NCBI GenBank assembly: GCA_963978445.1
Contig: CAXBRT010000001.1
Span: forward strand, 1-58,983
Direction of reading: 5' to 3'
DNA: 58,983 bases
DNA from: an uncultured Flavobacteriales bacterium
GTDB taxonomy: Bacteria > Bacteroidota > Bacteroidia > Flavobacteriales > Schleiferiaceae
Shown here one piece after another: positions 32,791 to 53,414 of this stretch. Within the stretch, counting starts at the first letter, position 1. Each line of letters begins with the position of its first letter. The notes beneath the pieces are model-generated. The model worked only from the letters and a program-made list of their open reading frames with translations, did no database searches and was not told where the DNA came from. Both the position numbers and the translations under genes were made by a program.

Positions 32791-32825
32791 AAAAAGCCCC
32801 GGCCGATGGCCGGGGCTTTTATTTT
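32791..32825. terminator. Bidirectional rho-independent terminator (dnaJ and T9SS cassette converge)
   Basis: AAAAA-GCCCCGGCC-gat-GGCCGGGGC-TTTTATTTT: a 9-bp GC-rich stem. Confidence 0.85.
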
Positions 32826-32858: not shown

Positions 32859-34760
32859 TTATCGAACAATCGTCACCGGACCTCCATAGCGGAGTTCCTT
32901 TCCACAATGCAAGAGAATGTAGTAGGTTCCGGGAGGTAAGGGATTTCCATTGGCGTTTGTCCCACCCCAGGTATCATCATAATTGTCTTGCATGAAGACC
33001 TGGCCACCCCAACGGTTCAGGACACGGAGGGTGCATTGGTCTCCAAAGGTGACTTCCGAAAGGTCCAAAACGTCGTTCATTCCATCACCATTGGGGGTCA
33101 TGGCGTTTTGAACGTTGGAGAGATCGGGGTCGGTTTGGTCTGGCAAATAGTAGACAAATACTGTATCAATGCCTTTACAGCCCAGCGAATTCGTCACAAT
33201 GGCATAGAAGGTGGTGGAATCTTGGTAGGTCCAAGCCTGAGGGTCCTGCTGTCGGTAATTGTTGAAGTAAACGGGTTTATCCGCAAACCACCGGTAGGCG
33301 GCGCCAGGCGTCACATTCAAATACGCGGTATCTCCACGGGCGATAGCCGTATCGTTCCCCGCAAAAACAGGGAGCGACCATTGCACCACATCGATGGTGT
33401 CATAGGTGGTATCGGGACAAGTCTTTGAATAAACAATGAGTTGCACAGGGTATTTGCCGGGTTGCGACCAACTCACATGTTCCACCGTATCTCCTGTGGC
33501 ACCGTACACATTGGCCAGATTTCCAAAGTCCCAGGAGAAAGTGGCATCGTGGGGAGTGGTTCCACTGGCGTAGAAGGTCAAGTCCTGCGCTTCAAAACAG
33601 CTTTGGCCGTTGTACTGAATGACGTAATCGGGTGCATCGTAAATGTGGAAGCTTTCGTACACTGTGTCCGTACACACCAATCCGGGATTGATGACTAACA
33701 TGACCGTGTAGGCACCCGTGTCAGGATAGGTCCAGGAAGGGGAAGGCGAAGAACTCGTATCTAATGTCGTGGTCGTATCGCCAAAATCCCAGTAATAGCT
33801 AATGGCTCCAGAGGTCTGCGCTTGGAAGGGCATGGTACGTCCCCCGCAGAGCAGGCTGGGCTTCTCCATTTGGGTCAACATGTCTGCGACCACATTACTG
33901 ACGCAGTTGGTGATATTGAACTGGTAGTCGCGGCGCACAGTGGATTGGAAGACACCGTTGCGGTATTCGCTGACACAAATACCCACCACAAATTGTCCCG
34001 TTGTATTGGCCGATCCCGTGATGTACCCGGTGTTTGGGTCGATGGTCAATGCGGGATTGCCTGGAACCGGTGAACTGCTGGTCTGAGGCGCGATAAAGGA
34101 AATGGCCGTGTAAGGAGGCGCCGAAGCAGGATTGGGAGAGGCATTGCCGCTTGAGCCCCCGTTGAGGATGTCACAAAACTCATAGTACAGCGAATCTCCA
34201 TCTGCATCCGTGGCCGAGGCATTGATGTTTTGTAGGTCATTCAAGCACAAAACAATGGGAGGCACCGTGGTAAACTGAGGGGAGTTGTTGCAGTTGTCCA
34301 TGGACGGGATTTGCACCGTGTAGGTATTGCCCTTTCCGCTTGCCACTATGTTTGAAATGGTGGCATTTCGACAGCAGCGCTGGTACGAAATGGTGTAGCC
34401 GCCGACCCGGGCAGGCAAATTCATGGTATGCACGTAGTCCGCGTATTCCGTACAAATGTTGGGAGGCGTGGTCAAACACGGATTTCCCGTACCGGCTGGC
34501 ACACTCACCGTAGGGCCTTTGTTGACCGTGGGATTGTACAGCTGTGCCCCCGTATTGTCAAAAATGGTGAAGGTCACCGTGTTGTCAAATTGTGCTCCAC
34601 CACTGTTACAATCGCGATAAATGCGGAGTTTGATGGTGTAGTTGTTGCCGCCGTTACAGGTGTAGGTGATTTCTCCCCCCACCAGGTGAGCGGCTTGAAC
34701 ACTTCCTGCCGAAAGCAGCAGGAAGAGCCCAACCATCCATTTGAAGAAGTGTCGCTGCAT
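32859..34760 (-). CDS. Secreted multidomain surface protein with a T9SS type-B (gliding-motility-associated) C-terminal domain: cargo B
   Basis: Signal peptide. Cys-rich N-module (AHLVGGEITYTC...YRDC), cadherin/He_PIG-like motif (ATDADGDSLYYE...IDPNTGYITG) and two PKD-like motifs (YYWDFGD, FSWDFGN). CTD reads MTPNGDGMNDVLDL...LNRWGGQVF...PLPPGTYYILL. Confidence 0.85.
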   Translation of the reverse strand: MQRHFFKWMVGLFLLLSAGSVQAAHLVGGEITYTCNGGNNYTIKLRIYRDCNSGGAQFDNTVTFTIFDNTGAQLYNPTVNKGPTVSVPAGTGNPCLTTPPNICTEYADYVHTMNLPARVGGYTISYQRCCRNATISNIVASGKGNTYTVQIPSMDNCNNSPQFTTVPPIVLCLNDLQNINASATDADGDSLYYEFCDILNGGSSGNASPNPASAPPYTAISFIAPQTSSSPVPGNPALTIDPNTGYITGSANTTGQFVVGICVSEYRNGVFQSTVRRDYQFNITNCVSNVVADMLTQMEKPSLLCGGRTMPFQAQTSGAISYYWDFGDTTTTLDTSSSPSPSWTYPDTGAYTVMLVINPGLVCTDTVYESFHIYDAPDYVIQYNGQSCFEAQDLTFYASGTTPHDATFSWDFGNLANVYGATGDTVEHVSWSQPGKYPVQLIVYSKTCPDTTYDTIDVVQWSLPVFAGNDTAIARGDTAYLNVTPGAAYRWFADKPVYFNNYRQQDPQAWTYQDSTTFYAIVTNSLGCKGIDTVFVYYLPDQTDPDLSNVQNAMTPNGDGMNDVLDLSEVTFGDQCTLRVLNRWGGQVFMQDNYDDTWGGTNANGNPLPPGTYYILLHCGKELRYGGPVTIVR

Positions 34761-36253
34761 TATTCGACGACTTTAATCCAAAGCTTGCCGGTGTATTGTC
34801 CGTTCAATCCGGATCCCTTCGCGCGATCTGCTTCCTCGTAGTTACGGAACTTCAAGAGATATACGTAGTACATGTTGTTGCGGTTATCGCGGAAGACCTT
34901 GGCATTGATGCCTTTCTTGGACAGGCTGCTGGCCATGCGGTCGGCATTGGCAGCTTCTCCATAAACACCGGCTGTCACATAGTACCCAGGTGAGCCCGGC
35001 GCCACATTGTTAGCGTACTCTTCCGAGCGGTAGCCGCGAAGCGCACCGCCTGCATTTGGATCGGTGCCACCGTTCCATGAACCGCTTTGACCATTGTCTT
35101 GGTTCCAGCCTGTTCCTCCGGCAGTGCCACTTGAATTACCGCCGTTTCCACGTAGGCCACCATTCTGCGCACCGGCCTCTTGAAGTTGCAAACCTTCTTG
35201 CTTGAGGGCTTCTTTTTGCTTCTCCAATTCAGCTGCTTGGGCTGCGCCCATTTCTTCCTTGAATTCTTCAAAACGCTCGTTGAGCAATTTCTCCGTCTCT
35301 TGTGCAGAGCTGCGTTGCTTGTCCTTCAAACGCTTTATTTCAGCTTCCAAACGCTCATTGCGCTTATTGTCGCCAAACTTATACGACAAAATGAACTCAT
35401 TGGACATGCCCAAATACGAAGCATAGGTGTTGGTGCTGAACTCATGCGCGTAGCCCAAAGAAAGTACGGGAGTCAGATGGACGCCTACATTCATGGTCGC
35501 TGCATAGTTAGAGCGGTACATCGCACCGATGTAGCCGTATTCCTTCATATCGAACATCAACCCGGCATCCACCTGAGGCTTCACAAAAGCAGCTGCACGA
35601 ACGGTCACCATGGGAGACAAGACCATGCGGTCTTTTTGTACGTTAATGTCGTACTGGGTACGGGCCACATAGTGACGAATCAAATGGTACGCCACTGGGC
35701 CGTCGTAGTTATTGCTGTAAGTGATGGTCGGATTGAGCAATTGGGGAACGCTTAGGCCAAGGTTGAAATCCGCCACGCGCAAATTCACACCCAAGATCAT
35801 GTCCAAGGTGCCGTTTTGATTGGCTGGAATCAAGAAAGGATCACCCAGGTTCTTGACTCGGACCGATGCCATGTCAAAGGAGTTGTTCACATAACCTGCG
35901 CCTACGCCGAAACTGAGCACGGAAGTCTCGGACAGCTGTGCATGGTAGGCATAGTTGCCATAAATACCCGAACGGCTAACGATATCCGTCTTGTCCGTGT
36001 AGGCATAGACAGAATAGCCAATTCGCTCCTTGTTAAGGGCGCCATTGAAGACCAATGCCGAAGTCTCGGGAGCTCCTTCCATACCTTGCCATTGCTGACG
36101 GTGCATGGTCGTTAACTCACTGAAGCCTTCTGCACCAGAAACAGCAGGGTTGGTCATTTGAGGAGCGAAGAAATAGTTGGCGTATAGGGGAAGTTGCTGG
36201 GCTTGAACCATGCAAGCTCCCGAAATCAAAGCCAGAACGAGCGTCTTTTTCAT
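34760..36253 (-). CDS. PorP/SprF-family T9SS outer-membrane protein fused to a C-terminal coiled-coil, Gly/Asn linker and SPOR-like domain
   Basis: Start at MKKTLVLALISGACMVQAQQ (signal peptide). LPLYANYFFAPQMTNPAVSG...WQGMEGAP is the PorP/SprF signature. The tail ends YYVTAGVYGEAANADRMASSL...YYVYLLKFRNYEEADRAK (SPOR pattern). Confidence 0.8.
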   Translation of the reverse strand: MKKTLVLALISGACMVQAQQLPLYANYFFAPQMTNPAVSGAEGFSELTTMHRQQWQGMEGAPETSALVFNGALNKERIGYSVYAYTDKTDIVSRSGIYGNYAYHAQLSETSVLSFGVGAGYVNNSFDMASVRVKNLGDPFLIPANQNGTLDMILGVNLRVADFNLGLSVPQLLNPTITYSNNYDGPVAYHLIRHYVARTQYDINVQKDRMVLSPMVTVRAAAFVKPQVDAGLMFDMKEYGYIGAMYRSNYAATMNVGVHLTPVLSLGYAHEFSTNTYASYLGMSNEFILSYKFGDNKRNERLEAEIKRLKDKQRSSAQETEKLLNERFEEFKEEMGAAQAAELEKQKEALKQEGLQLQEAGAQNGGLRGNGGNSSGTAGGTGWNQDNGQSGSWNGGTDPNAGGALRGYRSEEYANNVAPGSPGYYVTAGVYGEAANADRMASSLSKKGINAKVFRDNRNNMYYVYLLKFRNYEEADRAKGSGLNGQYTGKLWIKVVE

Positions 36254-36261
36254 AACGACGA

Positions 36262-38343
36262 TTAATTGCGAATTACAGTAATGGCGCCGCGGTAACGGGG
36301 TTCTCCGTTGCAAAGCAGCAAATAGTAGTAGGTTCCATCGGGCAGTGGGTCGCCTCCGGTATTTGTTCCATCCCAGCCTGAGATGTACCGAGGCTCTTCG
36401 TAGACTTGAGCGCCCCAACGATCTAGGATTACCAGATCACAAGAGTCTGCTTGGACTACTTCCGATAGATCGAATACGTCATTAAAGCCATCGCCGTTGG
36501 GCGTAATGACGTTCATGACATTGGAAATATTTGGCAAAAGGGTGGCGGGGTCAAACTGAACCACCATCATGGAATCAATGCCCCAGCAGCCCAGTGCACT
36601 GCGAACTTCGACAAAGTACCACGTCGTATCGCTAGTGGGTCGCGTTTGTGCGTTGGGATTGTAGGGGTCGCTGAAGTATGCAGGCTTATCTGCATACCAG
36701 TAGTATTGCAAACCACCGGTGGCGTTCAGTTGCACGACGTCCCCGGGCATGACCACCTGATCTGGACCCGCGTTGGGGGTCACGACAATTTGCGTGATTT
36801 TCAACGTGTCGTAGCTGGTGCAATTGTTTGGACCGGTTGCTTCAACGACGTAAGTTCCAGGTTCCTTCGCATAGAAAGAAACACCCGAGTAGGCACCTGT
36901 TGGCCACGTCCACTGATAGCTTAGGCCGTTACCCGTCGCCCCAATAAGAACCGAGTCACCGGCACACAAAGCCAAGCTATCCTTGGGTGCAACGTTTACG
37001 GTAGGCAACGGAATGACATTGACTTGCAAAGGAGCGGTAGTGAAATCGCAGTTTTCGCTGTTAATCACCAAACGGTACTGCGCCGATCCAGCTATCAAGC
37101 CCGTATCCACTGTAAGGTCCGATTGATCTTGACCGGGTATCGCTTGCCAAGACCCAGTTGTGATGGGATATTTCACCTCCCACTGGAAGGTCCAATCATT
37201 GGTCAAACTGGTAGCATTGCTTCGGAGCAACGTAGAATCTCCGGGGCAAATGTCCAGCGAGGCAGCCGATTGCCAAGCCCACTGGATGTTTTCAATGAAG
37301 GTGTCCGGCACTGTGTCTACAAAAAGTTCCACCGAATAGCTCGTATCCGGGCAACCACCAGGGAACCAATAGGTCACCAAGGAATACAATCCCGATTGAT
37401 TGGTGATGTAATCTCGGTTGGTCGCACCATTGATGGTCACCTTGAGCTTTTGTCCAAACTGATCCACAGAATCCTTCAACCATTGGTAATCCACGCTCGT
37501 ACCTGGCGCAAAGGAAACCGGTCCGCGCAGGGTGATGGATTCCGTTTCACAGAAAGCCAAAGAGTCGACTTGACTGTCCTTGTCCAAAACATTCAGCGTG
37601 AACATACCCGCAGGAATATGGGTAATAGTCGTTTGAGGCGCATAGACGTTGATGGTCGTATCCGCACTCATGACGTCACAGTTTCCAGAAGAACCTGTTA
37701 CGGCATAAACTCCACTGGCAAAAACGATGAGTGAATCTGCCGTTGCTCCCGTGATCACAGAGCCACCATTGGTCCACTCGTAGCTGTCTAATCCTTTCGT
37801 GGCGTAAATAACGACGGTATCCCCCTCACACATGCCCCAGTCGGGTGCACCACTGTAGAGGTTTTCGAATCCTCCCACGATCGAATCTATCTCCACCGTA
37901 GGGGCGACATTGACCGTCATTTGAATCGTGTCAGACCACAATACGGGAGATGTGGAACGCACGGCAAGGCCGTAAAAATTGTTGGTGGTGATAGTCACTG
38001 GGACAACGACCCACGCATACTTCACACCGGCAGAAATGGTGTCTGCTATGGTGCCTGTTGGTGCTGGCGTGATAGACTGCCACTTCACAATTTCGAGGGT
38101 ATCGCTGTTGGCTTGGGTAAAAGCCGACTTCATACCCGGAGCAAGCAACACATAAAAATCATTGGTAGCGGTCATGCCTGGCGCACCGATGGTCATGGTC
38201 AAGCGGAGCGAATCACCCGTACACTTTGACAAGTTTGGGGCCTGAACGAGATCTAACGTCTGGGCGCCGAGAAAGGAAGGGGCGGCCAGCAGGAGCGCTA
38301 GAGAAATGCGTCGAATCCAAGACATACGTCGAGTAGTTTTCAT
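36262..38343 (-). CDS. Secreted surface protein with tandem Cys-pair Ig-like repeats and a T9SS type-B C-terminal domain: cargo A
   Basis: Signal peptide. Repeated C.GD[ST] motifs each followed by a closing [NG]C. CTD reads ITPNGDGFNDVFDL...LDRWGAQVY...PLPDGTYYYLL. Confidence 0.85.
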   Translation of the reverse strand: MKTTRRMSWIRRISLALLLAAPSFLGAQTLDLVQAPNLSKCTGDSLRLTMTIGAPGMTATNDFYVLLAPGMKSAFTQANSDTLEIVKWQSITPAPTGTIADTISAGVKYAWVVVPVTITTNNFYGLAVRSTSPVLWSDTIQMTVNVAPTVEIDSIVGGFENLYSGAPDWGMCEGDTVVIYATKGLDSYEWTNGGSVITGATADSLIVFASGVYAVTGSSGNCDVMSADTTINVYAPQTTITHIPAGMFTLNVLDKDSQVDSLAFCETESITLRGPVSFAPGTSVDYQWLKDSVDQFGQKLKVTINGATNRDYITNQSGLYSLVTYWFPGGCPDTSYSVELFVDTVPDTFIENIQWAWQSAASLDICPGDSTLLRSNATSLTNDWTFQWEVKYPITTGSWQAIPGQDQSDLTVDTGLIAGSAQYRLVINSENCDFTTAPLQVNVIPLPTVNVAPKDSLALCAGDSVLIGATGNGLSYQWTWPTGAYSGVSFYAKEPGTYVVEATGPNNCTSYDTLKITQIVVTPNAGPDQVVMPGDVVQLNATGGLQYYWYADKPAYFSDPYNPNAQTRPTSDTTWYFVEVRSALGCWGIDSMMVVQFDPATLLPNISNVMNVITPNGDGFNDVFDLSEVVQADSCDLVILDRWGAQVYEEPRYISGWDGTNTGGDPLPDGTYYYLLLCNGEPRYRGAITVIRN

Positions 38344-38530: not shown

Positions 38531-38540
38531 CTTGAAACCG

Positions 38541-38924
38541 ATGAAAGACTTAGAACCTATGCCTTTCCTTAAAAGTTTTTGGCAGACCAGCATGCATGCA
38601 CTCAATGGCATTGCTCTGGCTTTTGAAAGTGAACGCAGTTTTCGCATCCACACCCTCGCCATGGTCCTCGTTTCCGCAACGGGCGCCTACCTGGGAATGG
38701 ACCTCATGGAATGGGCCATTTTGTTCTTGACGTATGTGGTTATGTTGGGCTTTGAGCTCCTAAACACCGCCATGGAGTCTTTTGCCAATTTTTTACATCC
38801 CGATGAGCACCCAGCGATAAAACGCGTCAAAGACATAGCCGCAGGCGCTGTTCTTGTCGCATCCATTTTTTCGGTAGCTATTGCAATTATCCTTTTCGGG
38901 CCTAAAATTGCGGCCCTCTTATAA
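38541..38924 (+). CDS. dgkA: Diacylglycerol kinase / undecaprenol kinase family membrane protein
   Basis: 127 aa from the first ATG. Three TM segments; E.LNTA.E (GFELLNTAMES) and KD.AAGAVL motifs. Confidence 0.85.
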   Translation: MKDLEPMPFLKSFWQTSMHALNGIALAFESERSFRIHTLAMVLVSATGAYLGMDLMEWAILFLTYVVMLGFELLNTAMESFANFLHPDEHPAIKRVKDIAAGAVLVASIFSVAIAIILFGPKIAALL

Positions 38925-38935
38925 TCCATCCCTGT

Positions 38936-39358
38936 ATGGCGCTGTATCCCACCCTAGCTGACCATTTTGATTTACATCTGGCCATCTGCCAGAAACTTCA
39001 GCGCGAAAATCCCCATTACAATTGGGTCGGTTTTTATTGGATGGATGACGCGGATCAGGCCTTGTATATTGGGGCCTACGTGGGCGCAACGACGGACCAT
39101 ACTCGCATACCATATGGACGAGGAATTTGCGGACAAGTGGCCCAAAGTGGAGAGACCTTTGTCGTCCCCGATGTTCACGCTCAAGACAATTATTTAGCCT
39201 GTTCTATCCAGACCAAAGCCGAAATCGTAGTCCCCATTTACAAGGACGGAAAATTGGTGGGTCAACTCGATATTGACAGCCACAAGCGCGATCCATTTAG
39301 TGCCGATGACCAGGCCTATTTGGAGCAGGTTTGCGCTGCGGTCGCGCTGCTTCTTTGA
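38936..39358 (+). CDS. GAF-domain protein resembling free methionine-(R)-sulfoxide reductase (YebR/MsrC-like)
   Basis: NWVGFYWMDD...IPYGRGICGQVA...VPDVHAQDNYLACS...EIVVPI...G.LDIDS aligns with my memory of E. coli YebR, including the conserved Cys positions. Confidence 0.8.
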   Translation: MALYPTLADHFDLHLAICQKLQRENPHYNWVGFYWMDDADQALYIGAYVGATTDHTRIPYGRGICGQVAQSGETFVVPDVHAQDNYLACSIQTKAEIVVPIYKDGKLVGQLDIDSHKRDPFSADDQAYLEQVCAAVALLL

Positions 39359-39362
39359 GAAT

Positions 39363-40613
39363 TTATTGATTGAAGCGAATCGCTTCCACGGGGTCCATCT
39401 TTGCCGCCATAGACGCTGGGGCAAGGCCCGAAAGCAGACCAATCACTGCCGATAGAATGACGCCAGTGAGGACATTGTTGGCGCTCATGGCGAGTTCAAA
39501 ACCGGAAATCGCTGTGCCGGCGGCCATGAGGATAGCTACGAGGACAAGCCCTGCCAGCCCACCTACGACAGATAGCAAGGTGCCCTCCAACAAAAACTGA
39601 GTGAGAATAAAGGCGCGTGTTGCCCCCAACGCTTTCTGGATGCCGATTTGCCCCGTTCGCTCGCGAACAGAAACGAACATGATGTTGGCAATTCCGAATC
39701 CTCCAACCAGAATGGAAAAACCGCCAATCACGGTTCCTGCGAGGCCAATGGCGCCAAACATTTGGTCCAAGCCTTGCGAAAACACGGAAGATTCATTCAA
39801 GCTAAAATCATCTTCCGCGATAGGTTTTAGGCGGCGGATAGCTCGCATGTGCATGCGCAAGTCTTCCTTCATTTCCAGGGTCGTGTAGCCCGGCTTGGCT
39901 TTGGCTTGAATGGCCGAACCTCCGAGTTCATCTCCCTTGAGCGCAACAAATAAACTAGCCGGCAGTAACACTTTGGTGTCATGCGATTGTCCCACCATGC
40001 GGGACCCCTCTTTGGGAAGGATGCCAATGACTGTAAAACGGCGGCCTAAGGTTTGGATGGAAGCGCCCAATGCATTCCCGGCAGGAAAGAGGCCTTCAGC
40101 TATTTCTGCACCGAGTACCACCACATTTTTAGCGGAGGCCATTTCTCCTTCTGAGAAGTAGCGACCCGTCTCCATGTTGAGGGAATTGAGCGAACCATAG
40201 AGGTAGGTTACGCCGTTGACTTCCACATTTTCGACCGATGAGTTGCCGTTCTTGACCGTTTCGCCAGACCCAGCGATGTACGTGATATAATCTGCCGTAC
40301 GCGGACTGCGGGCTGAAAGCCGCTTAAAGTCATTCATGCCCACTTCTGGACGCTGGAAATACTTCCACCACGCAAACTCTCCCCCATCGCCGCCCCATGG
40401 CCATTTTTGGATGTAAACCACATCGCTTCCAAGGCTTTCTACTGAATTCCGAATATTCCGTTCCAAGCTGTCCACAATGGCGTAGACGGCAATGATGGCA
40501 AAGATGCCAATCGTAATACCTAATAAACTGAGAAACGTCCTCAACCTATTGGAAACCAATGCCATCCAAGCAAAACGCAAGGATTCCGAAAGGAGAGCAA
40601 CAATTTTCCGCAT
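39363..40613 (-). CDS. FtsX/MacB-type ABC transporter permease with no adjacent ATPase gene
   Basis: 416 aa. One N-terminal TM segment, a large periplasmic domain and three C-terminal TM segments (IGIQKALGA...). Confidence 0.85.
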   Translation of the reverse strand: MRKIVALLSESLRFAWMALVSNRLRTFLSLLGITIGIFAIIAVYAIVDSLERNIRNSVESLGSDVVYIQKWPWGGDGGEFAWWKYFQRPEVGMNDFKRLSARSPRTADYITYIAGSGETVKNGNSSVENVEVNGVTYLYGSLNSLNMETGRYFSEGEMASAKNVVVLGAEIAEGLFPAGNALGASIQTLGRRFTVIGILPKEGSRMVGQSHDTKVLLPASLFVALKGDELGGSAIQAKAKPGYTTLEMKEDLRMHMRAIRRLKPIAEDDFSLNESSVFSQGLDQMFGAIGLAGTVIGGFSILVGGFGIANIMFVSVRERTGQIGIQKALGATRAFILTQFLLEGTLLSVVGGLAGLVLVAILMAAGTAISGFELAMSANNVLTGVILSAVIGLLSGLAPASMAAKMDPVEAIRFNQ

Positions 40614-40651
40614 GGGACCTGAAAATTACAAAGTCCATGCCATGGAATTCC

Positions 40652-40659
40652 TACCTTTG
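40652..40659 (+). promoter_or_regulatory. Candidate -7 box (TACCTTTG) for purH-mreBCD-mrdA-rodA
   Basis: TAnnTTTG match 25 nt upstream of the purH ATG. Identical octamer to the helicase candidate. Confidence 0.4.
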
Positions 40660-40683
40660 TTTTTTAGATTTTTTCCCAGGTAC

Positions 40684-42207
40684 ATGTCCGTTTTTACTCC
40701 TGTTCAGTCTGCGCTAATTTCCGTCTACCATAAAGAAGGTCTTGCCCCTATTTTGCATGCTTTGCACGCAGCAGGCGTCAAGCTCTACTCCACGGGCGGC
40801 ACGCAGACTTTTATCGAATCAGAGGGCTTGCCTGTCACGGCCATTGAGCAGGTAACGGGTTTCCCGAGCATCTTAGACGGGCGAGTAAAAACCCTACATC
40901 CGAATGTGTTTGGGGGGATCCTTTGGCGTCGTGATAACGCCGAAGATGCGAAGACCGTTGAGGAACGCGCCATCCCGAGTTTTGACCTGGTAATCGTGGA
41001 CCTCTACCCGTTTGAGGATACGGTCGCATCAGGTGCTTCAGAGGCGGACATCATCGAAAAGATTGACATTGGCGGCATTTCATTGATTCGTGCGGGTGCC
41101 AAAAATTTCCATCATGTTTGGATGGTTTCCTCCCGAGCGGAATACCCTGAGGTATTGAGCATCCTGCAGTCGCAAGGCGCTCAGACAAGTCTGGAACAGC
41201 GAAAGGCATTTGCTGGCCGCAGCTTTAAGGTGAGTAATCACTACGACGGAGCCATTGGGGCTTGGTTTGCGGGAGAAACCAAACCATTCCCCGGTCTTCC
41301 AGGCGAGCGACGGGCGCTTCGCTATGGCGAGAATCCACACCAACCCGCGTGGTTCATTGGAGACTTGGATGAGCTCTTTATCCAACACAACGGCAAAGAG
41401 CTGAGCTACAACAACCTTTTGGACATCGATGCGGCTATGCTCTTTTGTGCTGAAGGGGGTGAAGACCCTACTGTCGCCATTATTAAACACAACAATGCCT
41501 GCGGCATGGCCTCTGCCGACACCTTGAGCAATGCTTGGGATCGGGCATTGGCCGCCGATCCGGTATCTGCCTTTGGTGGAGTAATTGCCTGCAACGAAAC
41601 GGTTGACGAAGAAACCGCCCTCAAAATGAACGACCTGTTCTTTGAAGTCGTTATTGCCCCCTGGTACAGTGTTGGTGCGTTGGAAATCTTAAAGAGCAAA
41701 AAGAACCGCATCATTCTGGAAAGCCAGCCCTGCGAATGGCCCCAGTACCTCGTGCGCTCAACCTTGAATGGCGCACTGTTGCAAGCCCGCGACAGCCACC
41801 GGGATAGTGAATCTGACTTGCAAGTGGCTACGAAGCGCGCTCCCTCAGAACAGGAGGTAGATGACTTGCTTTTCGCTTCGGCGGTATGCAAGCACACCAA
41901 GAGCAACACCATTGTTCTTGCGAAAGACCGTCAGCTTATCGCCAGCGGAACAGGTCAAACCTCCCGCGTCGACGCCCTCAGACAAGCCATTCAGAAGGCG
42001 GAATCTTTTGGGATTTCACTCGAAGGAGCCGTCATGGCGTCAGATGCATTTTTTCCTTTCCCCGATTGTGTGGAAATTGCATACCAAGCTGGCATTCGGG
42101 CCGTTATCCAACCAGGCGGCTCTATTAAGGATCAACTAAGCACCGATTTTTGCGATGCTCATGACCTAGCCATGGTCATGACGGGCATCCGTCACTTTAA
42201 ACACTAA
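40684..42207 (+). CDS. purH: Bifunctional AICAR formyltransferase / IMP cyclohydrolase
   Basis: ALISVYHKEGL...LYSTGGT, GRVKTLHP and YGENPHQ. Start trimmed to MSVFTP so it does not overlap the permease. Confidence 0.96.
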   Translation: MSVFTPVQSALISVYHKEGLAPILHALHAAGVKLYSTGGTQTFIESEGLPVTAIEQVTGFPSILDGRVKTLHPNVFGGILWRRDNAEDAKTVEERAIPSFDLVIVDLYPFEDTVASGASEADIIEKIDIGGISLIRAGAKNFHHVWMVSSRAEYPEVLSILQSQGAQTSLEQRKAFAGRSFKVSNHYDGAIGAWFAGETKPFPGLPGERRALRYGENPHQPAWFIGDLDELFIQHNGKELSYNNLLDIDAAMLFCAEGGEDPTVAIIKHNNACGMASADTLSNAWDRALAADPVSAFGGVIACNETVDEETALKMNDLFFEVVIAPWYSVGALEILKSKKNRIILESQPCEWPQYLVRSTLNGALLQARDSHRDSESDLQVATKRAPSEQEVDDLLFASAVCKHTKSNTIVLAKDRQLIASGTGQTSRVDALRQAIQKAESFGISLEGAVMASDAFFPFPDCVEIAYQAGIRAVIQPGGSIKDQLSTDFCDAHDLAMVMTGIRHFKH

Positions 42208-42216
42208 CCTGGCTCT

Positions 42217-43245
42217 ATGGGACTGTTTGATTTTTTAACTTACGATATTGCGATTGACCTCGGAACGGCCAATACGCTGATTATTCACAACGACAAGGTC
42301 GTGGTAGACGCCCCGTCTATTGTCGCCATGGACCGGACCACCAACGCCATTCTTGCCATTGGCCATGAGGCCATGCAGATGCATGGAAAGACGCATGAGA
42401 ACATTCGGACCGTTCGCCCCTTGAAAGATGGCGTCATCGCTGACTTTGTGGCATCAGAGCACATGATTCGGGAAATGATTAAGAGCATTCCCGTGCTGAA
42501 GAACAAGTGGTTGACGCCCTCCTTGCGAATGGTAATCTGCATCCCCTCAGGCATTACCGAGGTAGAGAAGCGCGCTGTACGAGACTCGGCCGAACACGCC
42601 AACGCTAAAGAGGTCTACCTCATCCACGAGCCCATGGCAGCTGCCATTGGTATCGGCGTCGACGTCCTGGAGCCCAAAGGCAACATGATCATCGATATCG
42701 GTGGTGGTACCACAGAAATTGCGGTTATGGCCTTGGGCGGTATTGTATGTGACAAGAGTGTAAAAGTGGCCGGTGACGTCTTCACCAATGACATCGCATA
42801 CTACATGCGTTCCCAGCACAACTTGTACGTCGGGGAGCGCACTGCAGAAATGATTAAGATCAACGTGGGTGCGGCGATAGAAAATTTGAGCTCTCCTCCC
42901 GATGACATGAGTGTTCAGGGACGCGACTTGATTACCGGCAAACCTAAGCAAGTGGATATCTCCTACAAAGAGATCGCTCGTGCTCTGGACAAATCCTTGA
43001 CGCGTATTGAAGATGCGGTCATGGAGGCTTTGTCGATGACCCCTCCCGAACTCTCTGCGGACATCTACAATTCAGGAATTTACATGGCCGGTGGCGGCTC
43101 CATGCTGCGCGGCTTGGATCAACGTATTTCTTCCAAAACTGACCTCCCCGTATATGTCGCGGAAGATCCTTTGCGTGCGGTGGTTCGCGGCACAGGCATT
43201 GCCCTCAAAAACCTGGAGAAATACCGCACCCTTTTGATGCGCTAA
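42217..43245 (+). CDS. mreB: Rod shape-determining protein MreB
   Basis: DIAIDLGTANTLI, DIGGGTTEIAV and GIYMAGGGSMLRGLD. Confidence 0.98.
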   Translation: MGLFDFLTYDIAIDLGTANTLIIHNDKVVVDAPSIVAMDRTTNAILAIGHEAMQMHGKTHENIRTVRPLKDGVIADFVASEHMIREMIKSIPVLKNKWLTPSLRMVICIPSGITEVEKRAVRDSAEHANAKEVYLIHEPMAAAIGIGVDVLEPKGNMIIDIGGGTTEIAVMALGGIVCDKSVKVAGDVFTNDIAYYMRSQHNLYVGERTAEMIKINVGAAIENLSSPPDDMSVQGRDLITGKPKQVDISYKEIARALDKSLTRIEDAVMEALSMTPPELSADIYNSGIYMAGGGSMLRGLDQRISSKTDLPVYVAEDPLRAVVRGTGIALKNLEKYRTLLMR

Positions 43246-43248
43246 GGC

Positions 43249-44046
43249 ATGCGGAACGTCCTGCGGTTCATCCTTCGCTACCGCATCCTCCTCACTTTGC
43301 TACTGATGCAGGTGAGCGGGCTCTACCTGACGTACCGCTCCTCACCCATGCATGAAAGTTTCTATTGGAGCCGTGTCCTAGGGGCGCAGGCCGAATGGAA
43401 CCGCACCCGCGACGGTTGGAAAGCCTATTTTGCCCTCGAACAGACCAACCAAGCCCTTCAAGCGGAGAATGCGATGCTCCGCGCGCAACTCAGCCAACCT
43501 GCTGCCCGACCCATCAACGCCGTCGACAGCAACCAATTTGTCTGGGTCTCTGGGCAGGTGATATACGGCACCTCGCATCTATTGAATAATGTTCTCATCC
43601 TAAACCGAGGTCGCGCAGAAGGCGTTGAGCCCGGACAAGGCGTCCTATCTCCGACTGGAGTGTTGGGGGTTGTCAGTCAGGTCAATGAGCATTTTGCCAA
43701 GGTGACCTCCCTGCTGCACGCGGAGTCCCGAATTTCAGGTACGGTAGCCCGAACTGGATACTTTGGCACGGTGGTCTGGTCGGGAGGTGCCCCCAATTTG
43801 GTCGATTATATTGACTTACCCATTGAAGCTCAAGTAGTGGTGGGCGATACCATTGTAACGGATGCACGTTCCGCTCTCTTCCCTTCCGGATGGCCCATTG
43901 GCCGAGTCGTTGGAGTGGAAACGGACTCCTCCCTTTTCACGCAAAGCGCTGTGCTCGAAGTTTGGGGCAGCATCAGCCGTCAGCAGCCCGCCTACATTGT
44001 GAAAAACGTGCTTGAAGAAGCACAAAATTCCCTCTTAGCACCATGA
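43249..44046 (+). CDS. mreC: Rod shape-determining protein MreC
   Basis: N-terminal TM segment, coiled coil (LEQTNQALQAENAMLRAQL) and a beta-rich domain. Lies between mreB and mreD. Confidence 0.88.
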   Translation: MRNVLRFILRYRILLTLLLMQVSGLYLTYRSSPMHESFYWSRVLGAQAEWNRTRDGWKAYFALEQTNQALQAENAMLRAQLSQPAARPINAVDSNQFVWVSGQVIYGTSHLLNNVLILNRGRAEGVEPGQGVLSPTGVLGVVSQVNEHFAKVTSLLHAESRISGTVARTGYFGTVVWSGGAPNLVDYIDLPIEAQVVVGDTIVTDARSALFPSGWPIGRVVGVETDSSLFTQSAVLEVWGSISRQQPAYIVKNVLEEAQNSLLAP

Positions 44047-44552
44047 AGCGCTGGACAACTTGGCTCCTGTGGTCATTAGGCATCCTGCTCTTTCAGAGCT
44101 TCGTGTTGAGCCAAGTTCAGCTCTATGGCTACTTGAATCCTTACCTCTATATCGCTTTAGTATTACTCGCTCCAGCCACTTGGAGCCGAATGCAACTCCT
44201 CTGGCTGGGTGCCGTTCTAGGTGGATGGATGGACTTCCAGATGCACAGTGGCGGCATGCACCTCATGGCGAGCACCCTCTTGGCCTATTTCCGTCCTGCC
44301 ATCCTCTCCTCTGTATTGCCTCGGGCTGCGGAAGAAGGCTTGGGCTTCACAATCCATGAAATGGGTGCGGGCAAATGGTTAGTTTACACGGCTGTAGCCG
44401 TGGCTACGCACCACGGATATCTCTTTGCCGTGGATGCCCATGGGCTCTACAATTTTTGGGGCTTTGTTTGGCGTACCATCGTTTCTGGAGCAGCGACCGT
44501 CCTCTTGCTCTATCTCCTGGGCTTATTGATTAAACCCGAAGAAGGGCGATGA
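44043..44552 (+). CDS. mreD: Rod shape-determining protein MreD
   Basis: 169-aa polytopic membrane protein with ATGA overlaps on both sides, in the expected position. Confidence 0.75.
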   Translation: MKRWTTWLLWSLGILLFQSFVLSQVQLYGYLNPYLYIALVLLAPATWSRMQLLWLGAVLGGWMDFQMHSGGMHLMASTLLAYFRPAILSSVLPRAAEEGLGFTIHEMGAGKWLVYTAVAVATHHGYLFAVDAHGLYNFWGFVWRTIVSGAATVLLLYLLGLLIKPEEGR

Positions 44553-46384
44553 AGCGGACCAACCTGTACTTCTTCTTACTCATTGGGGCGACGCTCATTT
44601 TTGTCGCGCGTTTGTTTTACATCCAAATCATCGACGAGCGCTACACCCTAAGTGCCGCAAACAATGCCCAGCGCATTGAAAAGATTTTTGCCCCGCGCGG
44701 GGTGATGTTGGATCGAAATGGCGAAGTCATGGCCTCCAACCAAATGGCCTATGATGTCGAAGCCACCCCTCGATTGATGCACGACATCGATACTGCTCGG
44801 CTAGCCCGTCTCCTCGGAGAAGACCTCGATCGCTTGCGCCGAAGCCTTCATCGTGCGAAGGTGTATTCCCCATTTCGCCCCAGCCCGATTCTCCGGGGAT
44901 TAACCGCCAACGATTATGCCCGCATTCAAGAAGAAGTCTCATTTTACCCTGGCATTGCCCTTCGGCGCCGCATCCTTCGGAAATATTTAAAGCCCACGGG
45001 TGGCAACGTGTTAGGCTATGTCTCAGAGGTGAATGACTACATCTTGAGCCGTAAGCCCGAATACGAATTAGGCGATTACATCGGCATCTCCGGGGTGGAA
45101 GCCAGTTATGAAGAGGCACTACGCGGTAGAGCAGGCCGACGCTATATCACCGTTGACAATCTCAACCGAGATGTGGGGCCCTTCCAAGGGGGTAAGTACG
45201 ACGAGAAGCCTGTACCTGGATCAAATTTGACCCTAACCTTGGACGCTACGCTTCAGGCCTACGGAGAGCTACTCATGTCCGGGAAACGCGGCTCCATCGT
45301 GGCGATAGAGCCTTCTACCGGCGAGATATTGGCTTTGGTCTCCTCCCCAAGCTATGATCCCAACGCACTGGTGGGACGGTATCGCTCGCGCAATTATTCC
45401 CTCCTGTACCGCGATTCCATCAACAAGCCTCTGTACGACCGGGGCATTCTGGCTGAATACCCACCCGGTTCGCCTTTTAAAGTACTTAACGCGCTGATTG
45501 CCCTGCAAGAAGGGGTCGTCTCCCCCGAAACCCAGTATACGTGCATCGATGGCTACCATTTTGGTCGTCTACACGTGGGCTGCCACTGCAAAGCAGGGAC
45601 CTTGAATTTACGCGGTAGTATTTCAAAATCCTGCAACAACTACCACTGTCAAATTTTGAAGCGAACTTTAGACAAGTACCCCACGGCCTCGCAGGGTATT
45701 GACGCTTGGAACAAGCACGTGACCAGCTTTGGTCTAGGCGCATTCCTGGGGGTAGACCTCCCGACGGGACGAAAAGGCTTTGTCCCCGACGGCAGTTACT
45801 ACAACCGGGTGTACCGCAGCGACCGGTGGAAATCGCCCACGGTCATTTCGCTCGCCATTGGCCAAGGAGAATTGGTGGTCACCCCCATACAGTTAGCCAA
45901 TTTGGCAGCGGCCGTGGCTAACCACGGCTATTGGTATACCCCGCACGTGGTGCGCCAAGTGGGCATGGACCCCGTCGACCCCGAAATCTACGGTTTCAAA
46001 CATATCACGACCATTGATTCCGAAAATTTTGACGTCATCATCCAGGGCATGGCCGATGTCTTTGAATCGGGTACCGCCCGTGCATCCCGACTCGAGGGTC
46101 TACCTATGGCAGGAAAAACGGGAACGGCCGAAAACCCTCACGGCCAGGACCACTCCATCTTTATGGCCTTCGCCCCTGTCGAAAACCCCAAAATTGCCCT
46201 TGCCATCATCGTCGAAAATGGTTACTGGGGTTCGCGTTGGGCAGCCCCTATCGCCAGCCTGATGATGGAGAAGTACATCCACGGCGAAATCAGCCGTCCC
46301 GCCATGGAGCAAAACATGGTCGAAGGCAATCTCCACGGTGAATACCGCGTCCACAGTGTAAAAACCGAACTCCCCCCCTTTTGA
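44549..46384 (+). CDS. mrdA: Penicillin-binding protein 2 (elongasome transpeptidase)
   Basis: SPFK (SxxK), SKSCN (SxN) and KTGTAE motifs. N-terminal TM anchor. Confidence 0.93.
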   Translation: MKRTNLYFFLLIGATLIFVARLFYIQIIDERYTLSAANNAQRIEKIFAPRGVMLDRNGEVMASNQMAYDVEATPRLMHDIDTARLARLLGEDLDRLRRSLHRAKVYSPFRPSPILRGLTANDYARIQEEVSFYPGIALRRRILRKYLKPTGGNVLGYVSEVNDYILSRKPEYELGDYIGISGVEASYEEALRGRAGRRYITVDNLNRDVGPFQGGKYDEKPVPGSNLTLTLDATLQAYGELLMSGKRGSIVAIEPSTGEILALVSSPSYDPNALVGRYRSRNYSLLYRDSINKPLYDRGILAEYPPGSPFKVLNALIALQEGVVSPETQYTCIDGYHFGRLHVGCHCKAGTLNLRGSISKSCNNYHCQILKRTLDKYPTASQGIDAWNKHVTSFGLGAFLGVDLPTGRKGFVPDGSYYNRVYRSDRWKSPTVISLAIGQGELVVTPIQLANLAAAVANHGYWYTPHVVRQVGMDPVDPEIYGFKHITTIDSENFDVIIQGMADVFESGTARASRLEGLPMAGKTGTAENPHGQDHSIFMAFAPVENPKIALAIIVENGYWGSRWAAPIASLMMEKYIHGEISRPAMEQNMVEGNLHGEYRVHSVKTELPPF

Positions 46385-46385
46385 T

Positions 46386-47663
46386 ATGCGAACGCAGAGC
46401 GGATGGTTTGGCAAACTCGACGGGCTCACGGTAGGGCTCTTTACCTTTCTGGTGGTATTTGGCTGGATGAATATTTATGCCACCGTCAATCCCGAATTGA
46501 ATTCCTTTGGCTGGGACTGGAACAACGAAGCGGGCCGCCAACTGCTATTCATGGGCTTGAGCGGATTGCTCATTTTCATTGTACTCCTCAGCGATGGCCG
46601 TCTGTACGAGGTGCTTACGGTTCCCATTTACATCGTCACCCTCCTTTTGCTCCTAGCCGTTCTCGCGGTGGGCAAGGAAGTAGGGGGCAACAAGAGCTGG
46701 TTGGCCATTGGCAGTTTTGGCTTGCAGCCCTCCGAATTTGCCAAACTCGGTACCGCCCTGATGACCGCTCGCCTCCTATCTCAACGCGGGGTGAGCTTGA
46801 AAAACTGGAGTTCGCGATGGATTCCCGCGGCAGCAGCCTTCTTGCCCATGGGCCTCATTCTGCTGCAACCTGACACCGGTTCCGCGCTCGTTTTCTTGGG
46901 TTTCATGCTCGTTTTTTACCGCGAAGGACTGCCCGGATACTTCATCTTTCTGGGCTTGGGAGCCATCGTCGTGGGGGTTCTAGCCCTAGCCTTTTCAAGC
47001 CAATTGGTTTTGAGCCTCATCGGGGTAGCTATGGGCATTGCCCTCCTACTGGACCGACTTACTAGGCGTCTAAAGTTTTCTGTCATTGTGCGCCACCCTG
47101 CTATTTGGTACGGGGTGCTTGCCATGATTTGGGCGCTGGGGGTGAACCAAATCTTTAATTCTGTCCTCCAACCCCACCAAAAATTGCGCGTTCAGCTCCT
47201 GCTCGGCCAGGTGGATCAACCAAGTGCAGCTGGATATCAAACGGCCCAATCGCTCATCGCCATTGGTTCAGGGGGCTTTATCGGCAAGGGGTATACCAAT
47301 GGCACCCAGACCAAACTCAACTTTGTTCCCGCCCAAACGACCGACTACATCTTCTGTACGGTGGGCGAAGAATGGGGATTCCTCGGGTCTATCGCTGTGC
47401 TTTTGGCATTTGCTGGCCTGATCGCACGCATCCTTTACCTGGCCGAACGCCAAAAAGAGGCCTTTTCTCGCATTTACGGCTTTGGAATCGCCTCCATTCT
47501 TCTCATTCACTTCTTGGTGAATATTGGCATGACCTTGGGGCTTGTGCCCGTTATTGGTATTCCTCTCCCCTTCTTTAGCTATGGGGGATCCTCCCTCTGG
47601 GCCTTCACGCTGATGCTCTTCCTCTTCTTGCGCATGGATGCCTTCCGTTGGCAAACCTTGTAA
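46386..47663 (+). CDS. rodA: Rod shape-determining SEDS protein RodA
   Basis: FtsW/RodA/SpoVE family (QPSEFAKL, TDYIF..VGEEWGF, PLPFFSYGGSS). Confidence 0.93.
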   Translation: MRTQSGWFGKLDGLTVGLFTFLVVFGWMNIYATVNPELNSFGWDWNNEAGRQLLFMGLSGLLIFIVLLSDGRLYEVLTVPIYIVTLLLLLAVLAVGKEVGGNKSWLAIGSFGLQPSEFAKLGTALMTARLLSQRGVSLKNWSSRWIPAAAAFLPMGLILLQPDTGSALVFLGFMLVFYREGLPGYFIFLGLGAIVVGVLALAFSSQLVLSLIGVAMGIALLLDRLTRRLKFSVIVRHPAIWYGVLAMIWALGVNQIFNSVLQPHQKLRVQLLLGQVDQPSAAGYQTAQSLIAIGSGGFIGKGYTNGTQTKLNFVPAQTTDYIFCTVGEEWGFLGSIAVLLAFAGLIARILYLAERQKEAFSRIYGFGIASILLIHFLVNIGMTLGLVPVIGIPLPFFSYGGSSLWAFTLMLFLFLRMDAFRWQTL

Positions 47664-52010: not shown

Positions 52011-53414
52011 TTAGAAACGAACGGTAACCGTCTCGTTGATCCAGCAGCCAATCGCGTAGCGGTCGCCTTCTTTCTTGCCAAACTGGAAAGAGATGGACTT
52101 GTCGGGGATGCCCACGCGAAACTTAGCGATGGTCTTGTCGGCACGACCGGTGATAGACGTGTCTACCTGCTTAGCTCGGGTAGCCTTGTCAATAGCCGCC
52201 CAATAGACCGCATTCTTCTCGAAGACGTTGTTACCGCAAGAGCCCGCAGCCGCTGCATAGACGTTTGCCCACATCAAATACGCTTCTCCTGAGTTCTCGT
52301 TGTTGCGCACAGCGGCAGCACAATCACTCTTGGCCGCAGACAAGTTACCCGTCTTCAAGTGGATAGCCGCCAAACGGAGGTAGTCACGTGACTTCTTCAT
52401 GGGGTCCGCTTCTTGTGCGATAGCATCCGTGAAGTACATGACGGCATCGTCGTATTTCTCGTTTTTGATGCTCAAGACACCCATAGAACGGGCTGCCTGG
52501 GGAGTTGGCTCCAAGTTGTAGAGAGATTGCGCCACCAAGTAATAAATGGGGTTGTCGGTACAATCAGACGTTCCAGCCGTGTCCGTACGCTCCTTAGAGA
52601 GCATTTTCTCCGCACGTCGCAACCATGCAGCATCGCCGAAATGCTTGTCGAAGTTGTCCTGGTTGTAGATAAGTCCCAAGCGATCGCAGGTCAAAAGGGG
52701 CGCCAAACCACGCTCAATGTTGGTAATCAACTTCGTGGACTGCTCCAAAAGGCGCTTATCAATATCCAAAACGCGCTTCTCACGAGAAGAAATCGTGCCC
52801 AGCGTATCTTTCTCCGTCAGGGCGGCGATTTCTCGGTTCCAGTTGTCTGTTTGAAGCTCGATAGCTTCACCTACTGCACCGTAGGCGTTGAGCAATCCTT
52901 CAGAATCCAACGTGTCAATCTTGTAGAGAGCGATGACCGCATTGAAGTAGTTGTTCAAGTACAAAGGCTGAATGTCCCCAGGATTTACTTCCAAAGCGGC
53001 ATTAAACATTTGGTAAGCTGTGTATGCATCCTCCGGATAGTAGTCGTAGAAGTCGTTGGCTTTTTGCCCCAATACTTTGGCCTCGCTGCCGGGGTAGTAG
53101 GTATTCCAATCGTCGTACATCTTCATCAAGGCTGCAATCAATTCCGTCTTTTTAGCGGCATCTTTTTCAGCTTTAATCTTCGCATCAAAAATCTTGGGCG
53201 CGAACTTGTAGACCACCTCGCTAGCCTGTGGGCAGGTGGTGTACACGATCATCCAAGGCTCATAGGCCTGTAGATACTCCTTGCCATTGCAGAGTTGGCC
53301 AAAGTTGTTATAGTTCTCAAAACAACGAATACTGTCTGCTTCAGAACTGCCCCAATTCTGGGCGTTTGCAAAGAATGCGCTGAATGCGAAGAGTACAATT
53401 AGTAGACGCTTCAT
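52011..53414 (-). CDS. Secreted TPR-like repeat protein of unknown function
   Basis: 467 aa. Signal peptide MKRLLIVLFAFSAFFANAQ and helical-repeat composition (A..Y...A/L.....Y..A). Confidence 0.65.
   Translation of the reverse strand: MKRLLIVLFAFSAFFANAQNWGSSEADSIRCFENYNNFGQLCNGKEYLQAYEPWMIVYTTCPQASEVVYKFAPKIFDAKIKAEKDAAKKTELIAALMKMYDDWNTYYPGSEAKVLGQKANDFYDYYPEDAYTAYQMFNAALEVNPGDIQPLYLNNYFNAVIALYKIDTLDSEGLLNAYGAVGEAIELQTDNWNREIAALTEKDTLGTISSREKRVLDIDKRLLEQSTKLITNIERGLAPLLTCDRLGLIYNQDNFDKHFGDAAWLRRAEKMLSKERTDTAGTSDCTDNPIYYLVAQSLYNLEPTPQAARSMGVLSIKNEKYDDAVMYFTDAIAQEADPMKKSRDYLRLAAIHLKTGNLSAAKSDCAAAVRNNENSGEAYLMWANVYAAAAGSCGNNVFEKNAVYWAAIDKATRAKQVDTSITGRADKTIAKFRVGIPDKSISFQFGKKEGDRYAIGCWINETVTVRF

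Follow-up and report, generated by a model that had tools for sequence, protein, structure and literature searches.

The window analysed here is a 58,983-nt contig stretch from an uncultured member of the Flavobacteriales (Schleiferiaceae), and all coordinates refer to positions within it. The gene in question lies on the minus strand (34760–36253, stop codon 34760–34762) and encodes a 497-aa type IX secretion system (T9SS) carrier from the PorP/SprF family with a long C-terminal tail, as judged from the open reading frame (ORF) list, the gene junctions, Pfam, NCBIfam, and a 41-sequence alignment of the family. The original prediction concerned positions 34763–35365 (minus strand), which are the last 201 codons of this 497-codon gene. 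Translation of 34760–35365 (minus strand) gave exactly the tail peptides that it had quoted, and Pfam, TIGR03519, and the AlphaFold2 (AF2) model agreed with its proposal that a barrel, a long helix, a low-complexity spacer, and a SPOR-family domain are joined in one chain. Our analysis chiefly yielded three things: a SPOR-like subfamily associated with the T9SS was recognised, its distribution proved broad, and it was found at the end of the motility protein SprD.

The carrier ORF is continuous over 34760–36253. The mechanical ORF list begins it upstream at a TTG codon; the ATG at 36253, located 8 nt past the upstream gene's stop, is the first codon of a typical signal peptide (residues 1–18, MKKTLVLALISGACMVQA, 36200–36253, minus strand), for which the cleavage site before QQ was judged by eye. 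In the 41-sequence alignment, Q19 and Q20 were invariant and the hydrophobic stretch before them was variable. The sole cysteine of the carrier, C14, is located inside the signal peptide, and the mature protein was free of cysteine in 41 of 41 family members.

Residues 19–293 (35375–36199, minus strand) constitute a PorP/SprF β-barrel of 14 strands, an assignment based on PF11751, TIGR03519, AF2, and Foldseek. The PF11751 (PorP_SprF) profile matched residues 16–291 over its full length (model 1–273 of 273; E=2.6e-55, 188.3 bits against a cutoff of 22.3), as did TIGR03519 of NCBIfam at residues 1–293 (model 1–292 of 292; 199.7 bits against a cutoff of 90.55). The AF2 model of the whole carrier, for which the 41-sequence alignment was used, contained 14 barrel strands at residues 45–293, with predicted local distance difference test (pLDDT) values mostly between 80 and 93. 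When the whole model was compared with the PDB by Foldseek, the best matches were PorV chains of SprA translocon complexes (8gl6_F and 6h3i_F), with OmpG and FadL ranking next. The full-model profile match, the PorV-like 14-strand barrel, and an adjoining gene for a cargo whose C-terminal domain (CTD) is of type B are all features of PorP/SprF membership. We infer that the tail is periplasmic, since the number of barrel strands is even and the C-terminal tail of SprF has been described as periplasmic (PMC12635249).

The tail begins with a helix, 3 residues past the last barrel strand. AF2 modelled residues 297–352 (35198–35365, minus strand) as a single unbroken helix of 56 residues with pLDDT 57–77, which would be approximately 8.4 nm long if straight. 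Half of its residues (50%) are D, E, K, or R, and conserved hydrophobic residues occupy positions 302, 306, 309, 323/324, 328, 331, 335, 343, and 350. The original prediction had described this segment as a coiled coil of about 65 aa; a long charged helix was indeed found in the model and the alignment, but it is shorter (56 residues), and its periodicity leaves a coiled coil unproven. The column-wise hydrophobicity of the 41 sequences showed the strongest periodicity at 3.6–3.8, not at 3.5, with at least two register shifts, and we therefore set aside a canonical coiled coil and refer to a charged amphipathic helix. The first ~40 residues of the helix were among the best-conserved parts of the carrier, suggesting that it may be more than a passive spacer. 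A hidden Markov model (HMM) of the helix of the window's family matched that family only, and other tailed PorP-like families carried longer charged helical or low-complexity regions in place of the 56-residue helix. At ~8 nm, the helix is about as long as Lpp, the tether between the outer membrane and the wall in E. coli.

The helix is followed by a G/N/Q/S-rich spacer at residues 353–402 (35048–35197, minus strand), which was disordered in the AF2 model (pLDDT 30–38, that is, below 40). The spacer was 32–76 residues long in the 41 homologues, and neither its sequence nor its composition was conserved. With this variable length and unconserved sequence, it behaves as a flexible linker would.

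The SPOR-like module occupies residues 403–497 (34763–35047, minus strand) and consists of a lead-in and a core at residues 423–496, as indicated by PF05036, AF2, and Foldseek. The SPOR profile PF05036 matched residues 421–479 with 35.3 bits, above the gathering threshold of 21 (E=1.4e-8), over positions 2–61 of the 76-position model only, and the SPOR assignment originally made by eye was thus borne out. In the AF2 model of the whole carrier, residues 423–496 formed a compact β-α-β-β-α-β domain with pLDDT 83–93; residues 403–497 modelled alone reached a pLDDT of 95.2 and a predicted template modelling score of 0.86. An ordered 20-residue lead-in (GY....YA.NV.PGS) packs against the core. With the end domain as the query, the top Foldseek match in the PDB was the SPOR domain of CwlC (1x60), the sole match with E<0.001 (E=3e-4), and further SPOR domains followed at ranks 8–21, namely RlpA (6i09, probability 0.95), DedD (6ztg, 0.94), and FtsN (1uta, 0.87). 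Across 390 non-redundant SPOR-like domains of the wider class described below, residues G423, Y424, Y425, A428, N429, V430, F440, L444, G448, F454, N459, Y463, V464, Y465, L466, A475, S481, Y487, W492, and I493 were invariant, yielding the signature GYYxxA(N/G)V(F/Y)...F.(N/D)..N...YVYL...A...Y....WI. Judged by its sequence, the end domain is a distinct aromatic-rich SPOR-like subfamily, for which binding to peptidoglycan is plausible.

The fused architecture is conserved in a large family. Loci were analysed in the best 80 of 149 species genomes (one genome per species) in a tail-profile scan, with HMMs of the barrel, helix, and SPOR-like domain built locally from the family alignment; the three parts were present in a single ORF at 79 of the 80 loci. 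These 80 genomes were labelled mostly Schleiferiaceae, Cryomorphaceae, Owenweeksia, Phaeocystidibacter, Croceimicrobium, or broadly Flavobacteriales/Bacteroidota, with one Polaribacter, and the closest relatives of the window among the scanned genomes were metagenome-assembled genomes of Schleiferiaceae. A protein search with the carrier as the query returned at least 291 clusters (90% identity) at E≤1e-5. The best 120 clusters showed 47–92% identity to the carrier, were 480–520 aa long, and nearly all contained PF11751 and PF05036, and the name in the source was solely “PorP/SprF family type IX secretion system membrane protein”.

The SPOR-like subtype extends beyond this family. Among 1.8 billion representative proteins, the tail profile matched 901 clusters with E≤1e-3, of which 230 had E≤1e-10. 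Among the best 150 of these clusters, at least 65 consisted of a PorP-like barrel, confirmed by Pfam, with 1–3 C-terminal SPOR-like copies (445–1393 aa); named members include Robiginitalea biformata, Ichthyobacterium seriolicida, Flavobacterium kingsejongi, Polaribacter aestuariivivens, and Aquimarina acroporae. A second family, obtained with the F. kingsejongi protein as the query, comprised 950 clusters at E≤1e-10, and all 116 of the 116 top matches examined had a barrel with 2–3 SPOR-like domains, for most of which the precomputed Pfam annotation lists PF11751 only. Its sources are mostly marine Flavobacteriaceae, including Arenibacter, Maribacter, Sediminicola, Eudoraea, Saonia, Costertonia, and others. 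We also noted proteins of 560–1010 aa (P0181, P0187, P0212, P0251, and P0132/P0140) with 1–3 SPOR-like copies, in which no PorP barrel was detected by HMM or Pfam; these proteins have no other Pfam domain, so that the SPOR-like subtype occurs in uncharacterised architectures as well. In Robiginitalea biformata (CP001712.1, L087:8001-9461), a 486-aa PorP protein with a SPOR-like domain is an orphan with no type-B cargo gene within 8 kb, which recalls Fjoh_1677, an orphan carrier serving several unlinked cargos.

The fusion had been put forward as possibly undescribed. No published description or functional study of a PorP/SprF protein fused to SPOR was found in the literature searched, and in this respect the suggestion held; the fusion is, however, not rare, given the numbers of clusters in the two families. 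Databases already list the protein family under a generic name, Pfam and UniProt show the two-domain architecture for some of its members, and UniProt labels some members of the wider class “SPOR domain-containing protein”. The architecture is therefore common in Flavobacteriales, although it is not functionally annotated.

The SPOR-like subtype was also found on the second component of T9SS attachment systems. PorE binds peptidoglycan through its OmpA_C domain and bridges it to PorP (PMC9143113), and the original comparison with PorE as a separate-protein analogue acting through OmpA_C agrees with the literature (PMC9143113, PMC12618676). One representative of the subtype is a PorE-like protein (PD40, CarboxypepD_reg, and OmpA domains) with two copies behind the OmpA domain. 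In Aestuariivivens sp. NBU2969 (L085:1-5616), an operon encodes a type-B cargo, then a plain 308-aa PorP, and then an 888-aa PorE-like OmpA protein, the C-terminus of which contains two SPOR-like copies of the same subtype as the window carrier. The extension was present in 2 of 120 PorE-like relatives, and thus represents a Rosetta-stone-type link rather than a common design. The presence of the subtype on PorP-like carriers and on a PorE-like protein indicates that the module occurs on either partner of the type-B attachment complex.

The carrier gene is flanked by two genes that, as originally proposed, encode type-B CTD cargos, with CHU_C/TIGR04131 matches on both sides. Cargo 1 (36262–38343, minus strand; 693 aa) is rich in immunoglobulin (Ig)-like domains and carries a type-B CTD (CHU_C E=1.1e-20, and TIGR04131); its stop codon lies 8 nt before the carrier ATG. 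Cargo 2 (32859–34760, minus strand; 633 aa) has PKD domains and a type-B CTD, and it is translationally coupled to the carrier gene, its ATG overlapping the carrier stop codon (TAATG). Cargo 1 has orthologues in other genomes at 35% identity over the full length, and in nearly all of the 80 loci where the contig reaches far enough, a gene of this type lies directly upstream of the carrier gene with a gap of 3–35 nt. Cargo 2 was present in ~28 of the 80 loci, mainly those closest to the window. The two cargos share 44% identity over the last ~200 aa, including the CTD, and differ elsewhere (Ig-like repeats versus PKD). The presence of cargo 2 mainly in close loci and the shared C-terminal region suggest that it may be a recent acquisition or a product of duplication of the C-terminal region.

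On the far side of cargo 2 lies a perfect hairpin with a 13-bp G+C-rich palindromic stem (32792–32820; AAAAGCCCCGGCC-GAT-GGCCGGGGCTTTT), between cargo 2 and the convergent dnaJ gene. Runs of A and T flank the hairpin, so it could terminate transcription on both strands, and it is likely a bidirectional terminator closing the three-gene unit and dnaJ. A sigma-70 promoter scan of the cassette gave nothing above chance, and the sigma-70 model is in any case inapplicable to Bacteroidota promoters. The neighbourhood at 38532–47663 contains dagK, a GAF-domain gene, an FtsX/MacB-like gene, purH, mreB, mreC, mreD, the PBP2 gene, and rodA, and murA, grpE, and dnaJ lie on the other side of the cassette. 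The same gene neighbourhood was found in genomes of only ~50% identity, and the window itself is core genome. No PorE-like or OmpA gene was found within ~8 kb of the locus in the window or in three other genomes. Elsewhere in the window, two adjacent ORFs of 467 and 522 aa (52011–53414 and 53420–54988, both minus strand) had no Pfam match at E≤1e-5; a CorC/CNNM-type transporter gene flanks them on one side and an acyltransferase/AMP-binding fusion gene on the other.

A type-B cargo remains associated with its own PorP/SprF-like carrier, the gene for which lies immediately downstream, and carriers can serve cargos with similar CTDs; in F. johnsoniae, PorP/SprF-like genes next to type-B cargo genes encode the cognate carriers (PMC12618676). 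Five F. johnsoniae operons contain a PorE-like gene together with genes for a type-B cargo and an SprF-like protein, and it was speculated that their products assemble into static complexes anchored to the wall (PMC12618676). The C-terminal tail of SprF has an invariant Cys-Xaa-Cys motif that forms a disulfide with Cys343 of GldK in the moving track (PMC12635249). The lack of cysteine in the mature proteins of the 41 family members makes such a CxC-to-GldK linkage impossible for the window carrier.

We tentatively favor, at a little under even confidence, the reading that the protein is a dedicated T9SS carrier serving cargo 1 and that its tail docks the carrier–cargo complex non-covalently to peptidoglycan. 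The barrel would collect the cargo CTD at the SprA translocon, as do other PorP/SprF carriers, and would then retain the cargo on the cell surface. The periplasmic tail, with its helix, flexible spacer, and SPOR-like domain, would dock the complex to peptidoglycan, such that the carrier would act as its own wall anchor, whereas a separate PorE-like OmpA_C protein is thought to anchor other PorP-like carriers. The carrier function for the neighbouring cargo is presumed by analogy with characterised carriers; in this lineage, the carrier probably serves the paralogous cargo 2 as well, since carriers accept similar CTDs and the last ~200 aa of the two cargos are similar. Peptidoglycan is our presumed ligand because the end domain belongs to the SPOR family and has its fold, the same subtype neighbours OmpA_C in a PorE-like protein, no PorE gene is adjacent, and no cysteine is available. 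Our data show the architecture and its conservation, the pairing with a cargo gene, the membership of the end domain in the SPOR family and its fold, and the lack of cysteines.

Several points weigh against this reading. The fold of the end domain is generic, with Foldseek TM-scores of just 0.4–0.55 and other ferredoxin-like folds interleaved among the SPOR matches. Tail profiles compared with the sequences of solved structures gave weak SPOR matches (CwlC, E=2e-4; DamX, 0.35). Matches to HtpG and TatB in the same comparison were rejected as spurious, and the HtpG match was judged to be due to chance. The conserved sheet residues on which FtsN relies to bind glycan and to localise to the septum are Q251, S254, W283, and R285. 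HMMER and hhalign paired YYVTAGVY of the carrier with WMVQCGSF of FtsN and YKVQIGAF of CwlC, the FtsN sequence in the alignment being confirmed as that of 1uta. At the two alignable positions of the four, Q251 is replaced by T427 and S254 by V430; W283 and R285 have no assignable counterparts, since the hhalign alignment of the SPOR-like profile with FtsN covers strand 1, helix 1, and strand 2 only (probability 9%). Position 427 is I in 62% and V in 34% of the 390 domains, that is, I or V in 96%. The original prediction had carried over to this domain the binding of SPOR to denuded glycan; with Q251 and S254 replaced, this specificity cannot be assumed, and the transfer is unsupported. In addition, a wall-tied carrier would need to reach the translocon within the slack of the spacer.

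The remaining points against a wall dock arise from SprC and SprD, both of which are needed for normal gliding in a role described as unknown (PMC9389320). The gene order is sprC-sprD-sprB-sprF (PMC5879114), and primer design implies that sprC is shorter than 2.1 kb (PMC9870892). The published 3′ primer for F. johnsoniae sprD (“final 33 bp of sprD”) matched exactly in one metagenome contig, PJTT01000089.1. A sprD-type ORF there (L091:2-2173) ends in GKMAIVKVEN, exactly 33 bp from the primer start. The next gene, from position 2300, encodes over 3,600 aa that include eight SprB repeats. Our SprD comparison covers the 723 C-terminal residues (3′ 2.1 kb) of this sprD-type ORF. TolA-like repeats rich in A, K, E, and D fill over 600 of these residues and are followed by a SPOR-like domain of ~86 residues, which matched the SPOR-like HMM of the window's family with 27 bits (E=2.5e-10). 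By BLASTP, this end showed 25% identity to the window domain (E=5e-5). It also matched SPOR-like domains of barrel-bearing proteins at 28–35% identity (E down to 1e-11); Pfam detected neither SPOR nor another domain in the C-terminal fragment. SprC, encoded just upstream of sprD, is the likely cargo of SprD, and HaloTag-SprC has been reported to move on the gliding track (PMC12635249), a poor fit with a static wall anchor. That SprD shares the end domain and SprC is mobile argues against a simple static wall staple. Overall, the direct tether to the sacculus suggested at the outset receives partial support.

These findings raise the main alternative, which we regard as doubtful although a real possibility, that cargo 1 and the carrier form an SprC/SprD-type gliding module, in which the SPOR-like domain would engage the track (GldJ, GldK, or GldN) or another motility component and the cargo would be mobile. 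This would account for both the mobility of SprC and the loss of the canonical glycan-binding residues, and it fits the SPOR-like end of the sprD-type ORF. In Sediminicola sp. YIK13 (L088:4713-16082) and a JGI genome (L089:4789-16208), a homologous pair, namely an Ig-rich CHU_C cargo of ~740 aa and then a PorP protein of ~700 aa with two SPOR-like domains, lies directly upstream of a gene for an SprB-repeat adhesin (5,634 and 6,801 aa, respectively). This order agrees with sprC-sprD-sprB, and the size of sprC agrees with that of the cargo. The window does not follow the order: no giant SprB-repeat gene lies downstream in its lineage, and the gene in that place encodes the 633-aa PKD cargo. Cargo 1 is just 23–25% identical to the upstream cargos of Flavobacteriaceae, and a study of the genus Sediminicola reported neither an SprC nor an SprD homologue (PMC12613372). 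The sprD evidence is confined to the 723 C-terminal residues, so that a PorP barrel in SprD is conjectural; the carrier has no cysteine for a disulfide with GldK; and the location of the subtype behind OmpA_C in a PorE-like protein is a better fit to wall binding.

A second alternative, which we consider improbable, is that the protein is mainly a general envelope staple that ties the outer membrane to the sacculus, as do OmpA, Lpp, and the OmpM porins, with cargo carriage secondary. Its layout mirrors that of OmpM1, which was found among the barrel fold matches, and the gene holds a conserved core position beside purH-mreBCD-pbp2-rodA and near murA. The 80 distinct loci contained no second tailed gene nearby, the copy number per genome not being directly counted, and the Robiginitalea homologue has no adjoining cargo gene. 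However, the barrel is a bona fide PorP/SprF barrel, almost always translationally linked to a type-B cargo, and the synteny with elongasome genes may be a coincidence.

Septa are where classical SPOR domains localise, one from Cytophaga hutchinsonii among them. Denuded glycan at division sites might likewise be the target of the carrier's tail, which would then gather carrier and cargo at the septum or new pole. This would be in keeping with the tail's Pfam SPOR membership and SPOR fold. We rate this as quite improbable, slightly more so than the staple, given that the FtsN septal-localisation residues are replaced (Q251 by T, I, or V, and S254 by V) and that the tandem arrays of 2–3 copies in relatives are atypical of divisome SPOR proteins. 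Finally, an artefactual fusion of an ordinary PorP gene with a distinct SPOR gene has a negligible probability: hundreds of clusters at 47–92% identity and 79 of 80 independent assemblies have the same single ORF, with a conserved helix 3 residues after the barrel, which rules out the frameshift, assembly join, or read-through for which a check had been proposed.

The wall-docking reading that we favor may be one case of a broader principle, namely that the tails of PorP/SprF carriers are interchangeable address tags that decide the destination of a type-B surface protein; we offer this as a speculative idea that is unlikely as it stands. Within the same idea, and with equally low confidence, the CxC motif would direct the carrier to the GldK track, a PorE-like partner would direct it to the wall, and the SPOR-like domain would specify a third address, either a state of peptidoglycan or a track component. 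If true, this would give a molecular role to SprC and SprD. Carrier positioning determines if a surface protein stays fixed, moves, or is localised, and a built-in SPOR-like tail represents a third, directly testable solution beside the C-terminal tail of SprF and PorE. The tailed carriers are a natural “fusion experiment” bearing on the PorP–PorE–peptidoglycan model. In addition, the cryptic end domain missed by Pfam provides a handle on the motility gene sprD. The signature GYYxxANVF...F.NP.N...YVYL...A...Y....WI could sharpen annotation, as most members of the long family are labelled just “PorP/SprF”. The subfamily is T9SS-associated and occurs in 1–3 copies: hundreds of carriers have it, as do some PorE-like proteins, and SprD ends in it.

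The window carrier can be compared with five known systems. Like the classical SPOR proteins FtsN, DamX, DedD, RlpA, and CwlC, it has a domain that matches PF05036 above gathering and adopts the ribonucleoprotein (RNP)-like β-α-β-β-α-β fold. In contrast to those domains, its alignable glycan-contacting positions are replaced, its last strand follows a loop of ~10 residues (GSGLNGQYTGK), its core comes after an ordered 20-residue lead-in, and the domain is attached to an outer-membrane barrel instead of an inner-membrane anchor or an enzyme. OmpM1 of Veillonella and OmpA likewise combine a β-barrel, a helical stalk, and a wall-binding domain in one chain. The order in OmpM is reversed (SLH domain, stalk, barrel), its barrel family and binding domain are unrelated, and it has no link to secretion.

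The carriers SprF, Fjoh_3951, and Fjoh_1677 share with the window protein the TIGR03519/PF11751 barrel, a gene position downstream of a type-B cargo, and a periplasmic C-terminal tail. The window carrier differs from SprF in lacking CxC and in having a 200-residue helix–spacer–SPOR-like tail in place of the short C-terminal tail. SprD (Fjoh_0980) resembles the carrier in that the sprD-type end domain belongs to the same SPOR-like subfamily, follows a very long charged helical region, and is encoded by a gene that follows the ~2-kb sprC; related barrel and SPOR-like genes of Flavobacteriaceae hold the position of sprD upstream of sprB-like genes. Unlike the carrier with its 56-residue helix, SprD has a tail of more than 600 residues of repeats, its SPOR-like domain is missed by Pfam, and sprB is the next gene. 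Lastly, in the PorP–PorE–PG1035 system of Porphyromonas gingivalis and the F. johnsoniae operons with PorE-like genes, a type-B cargo on a PorP-like barrel is likewise proposed to be tied to peptidoglycan from the periplasm. The wall element there is a separate lipoprotein with TPR, β-propeller, CRD, and OmpA_C domains, whereas in the window it would be a fused SPOR-like domain. Pfam detected no PorE (PG1058)-type domains in the carrier or the neighbouring genes, and the carrier is therefore a functional analogue of PorE at most, with the barrel and the putative wall anchor in a single chain.

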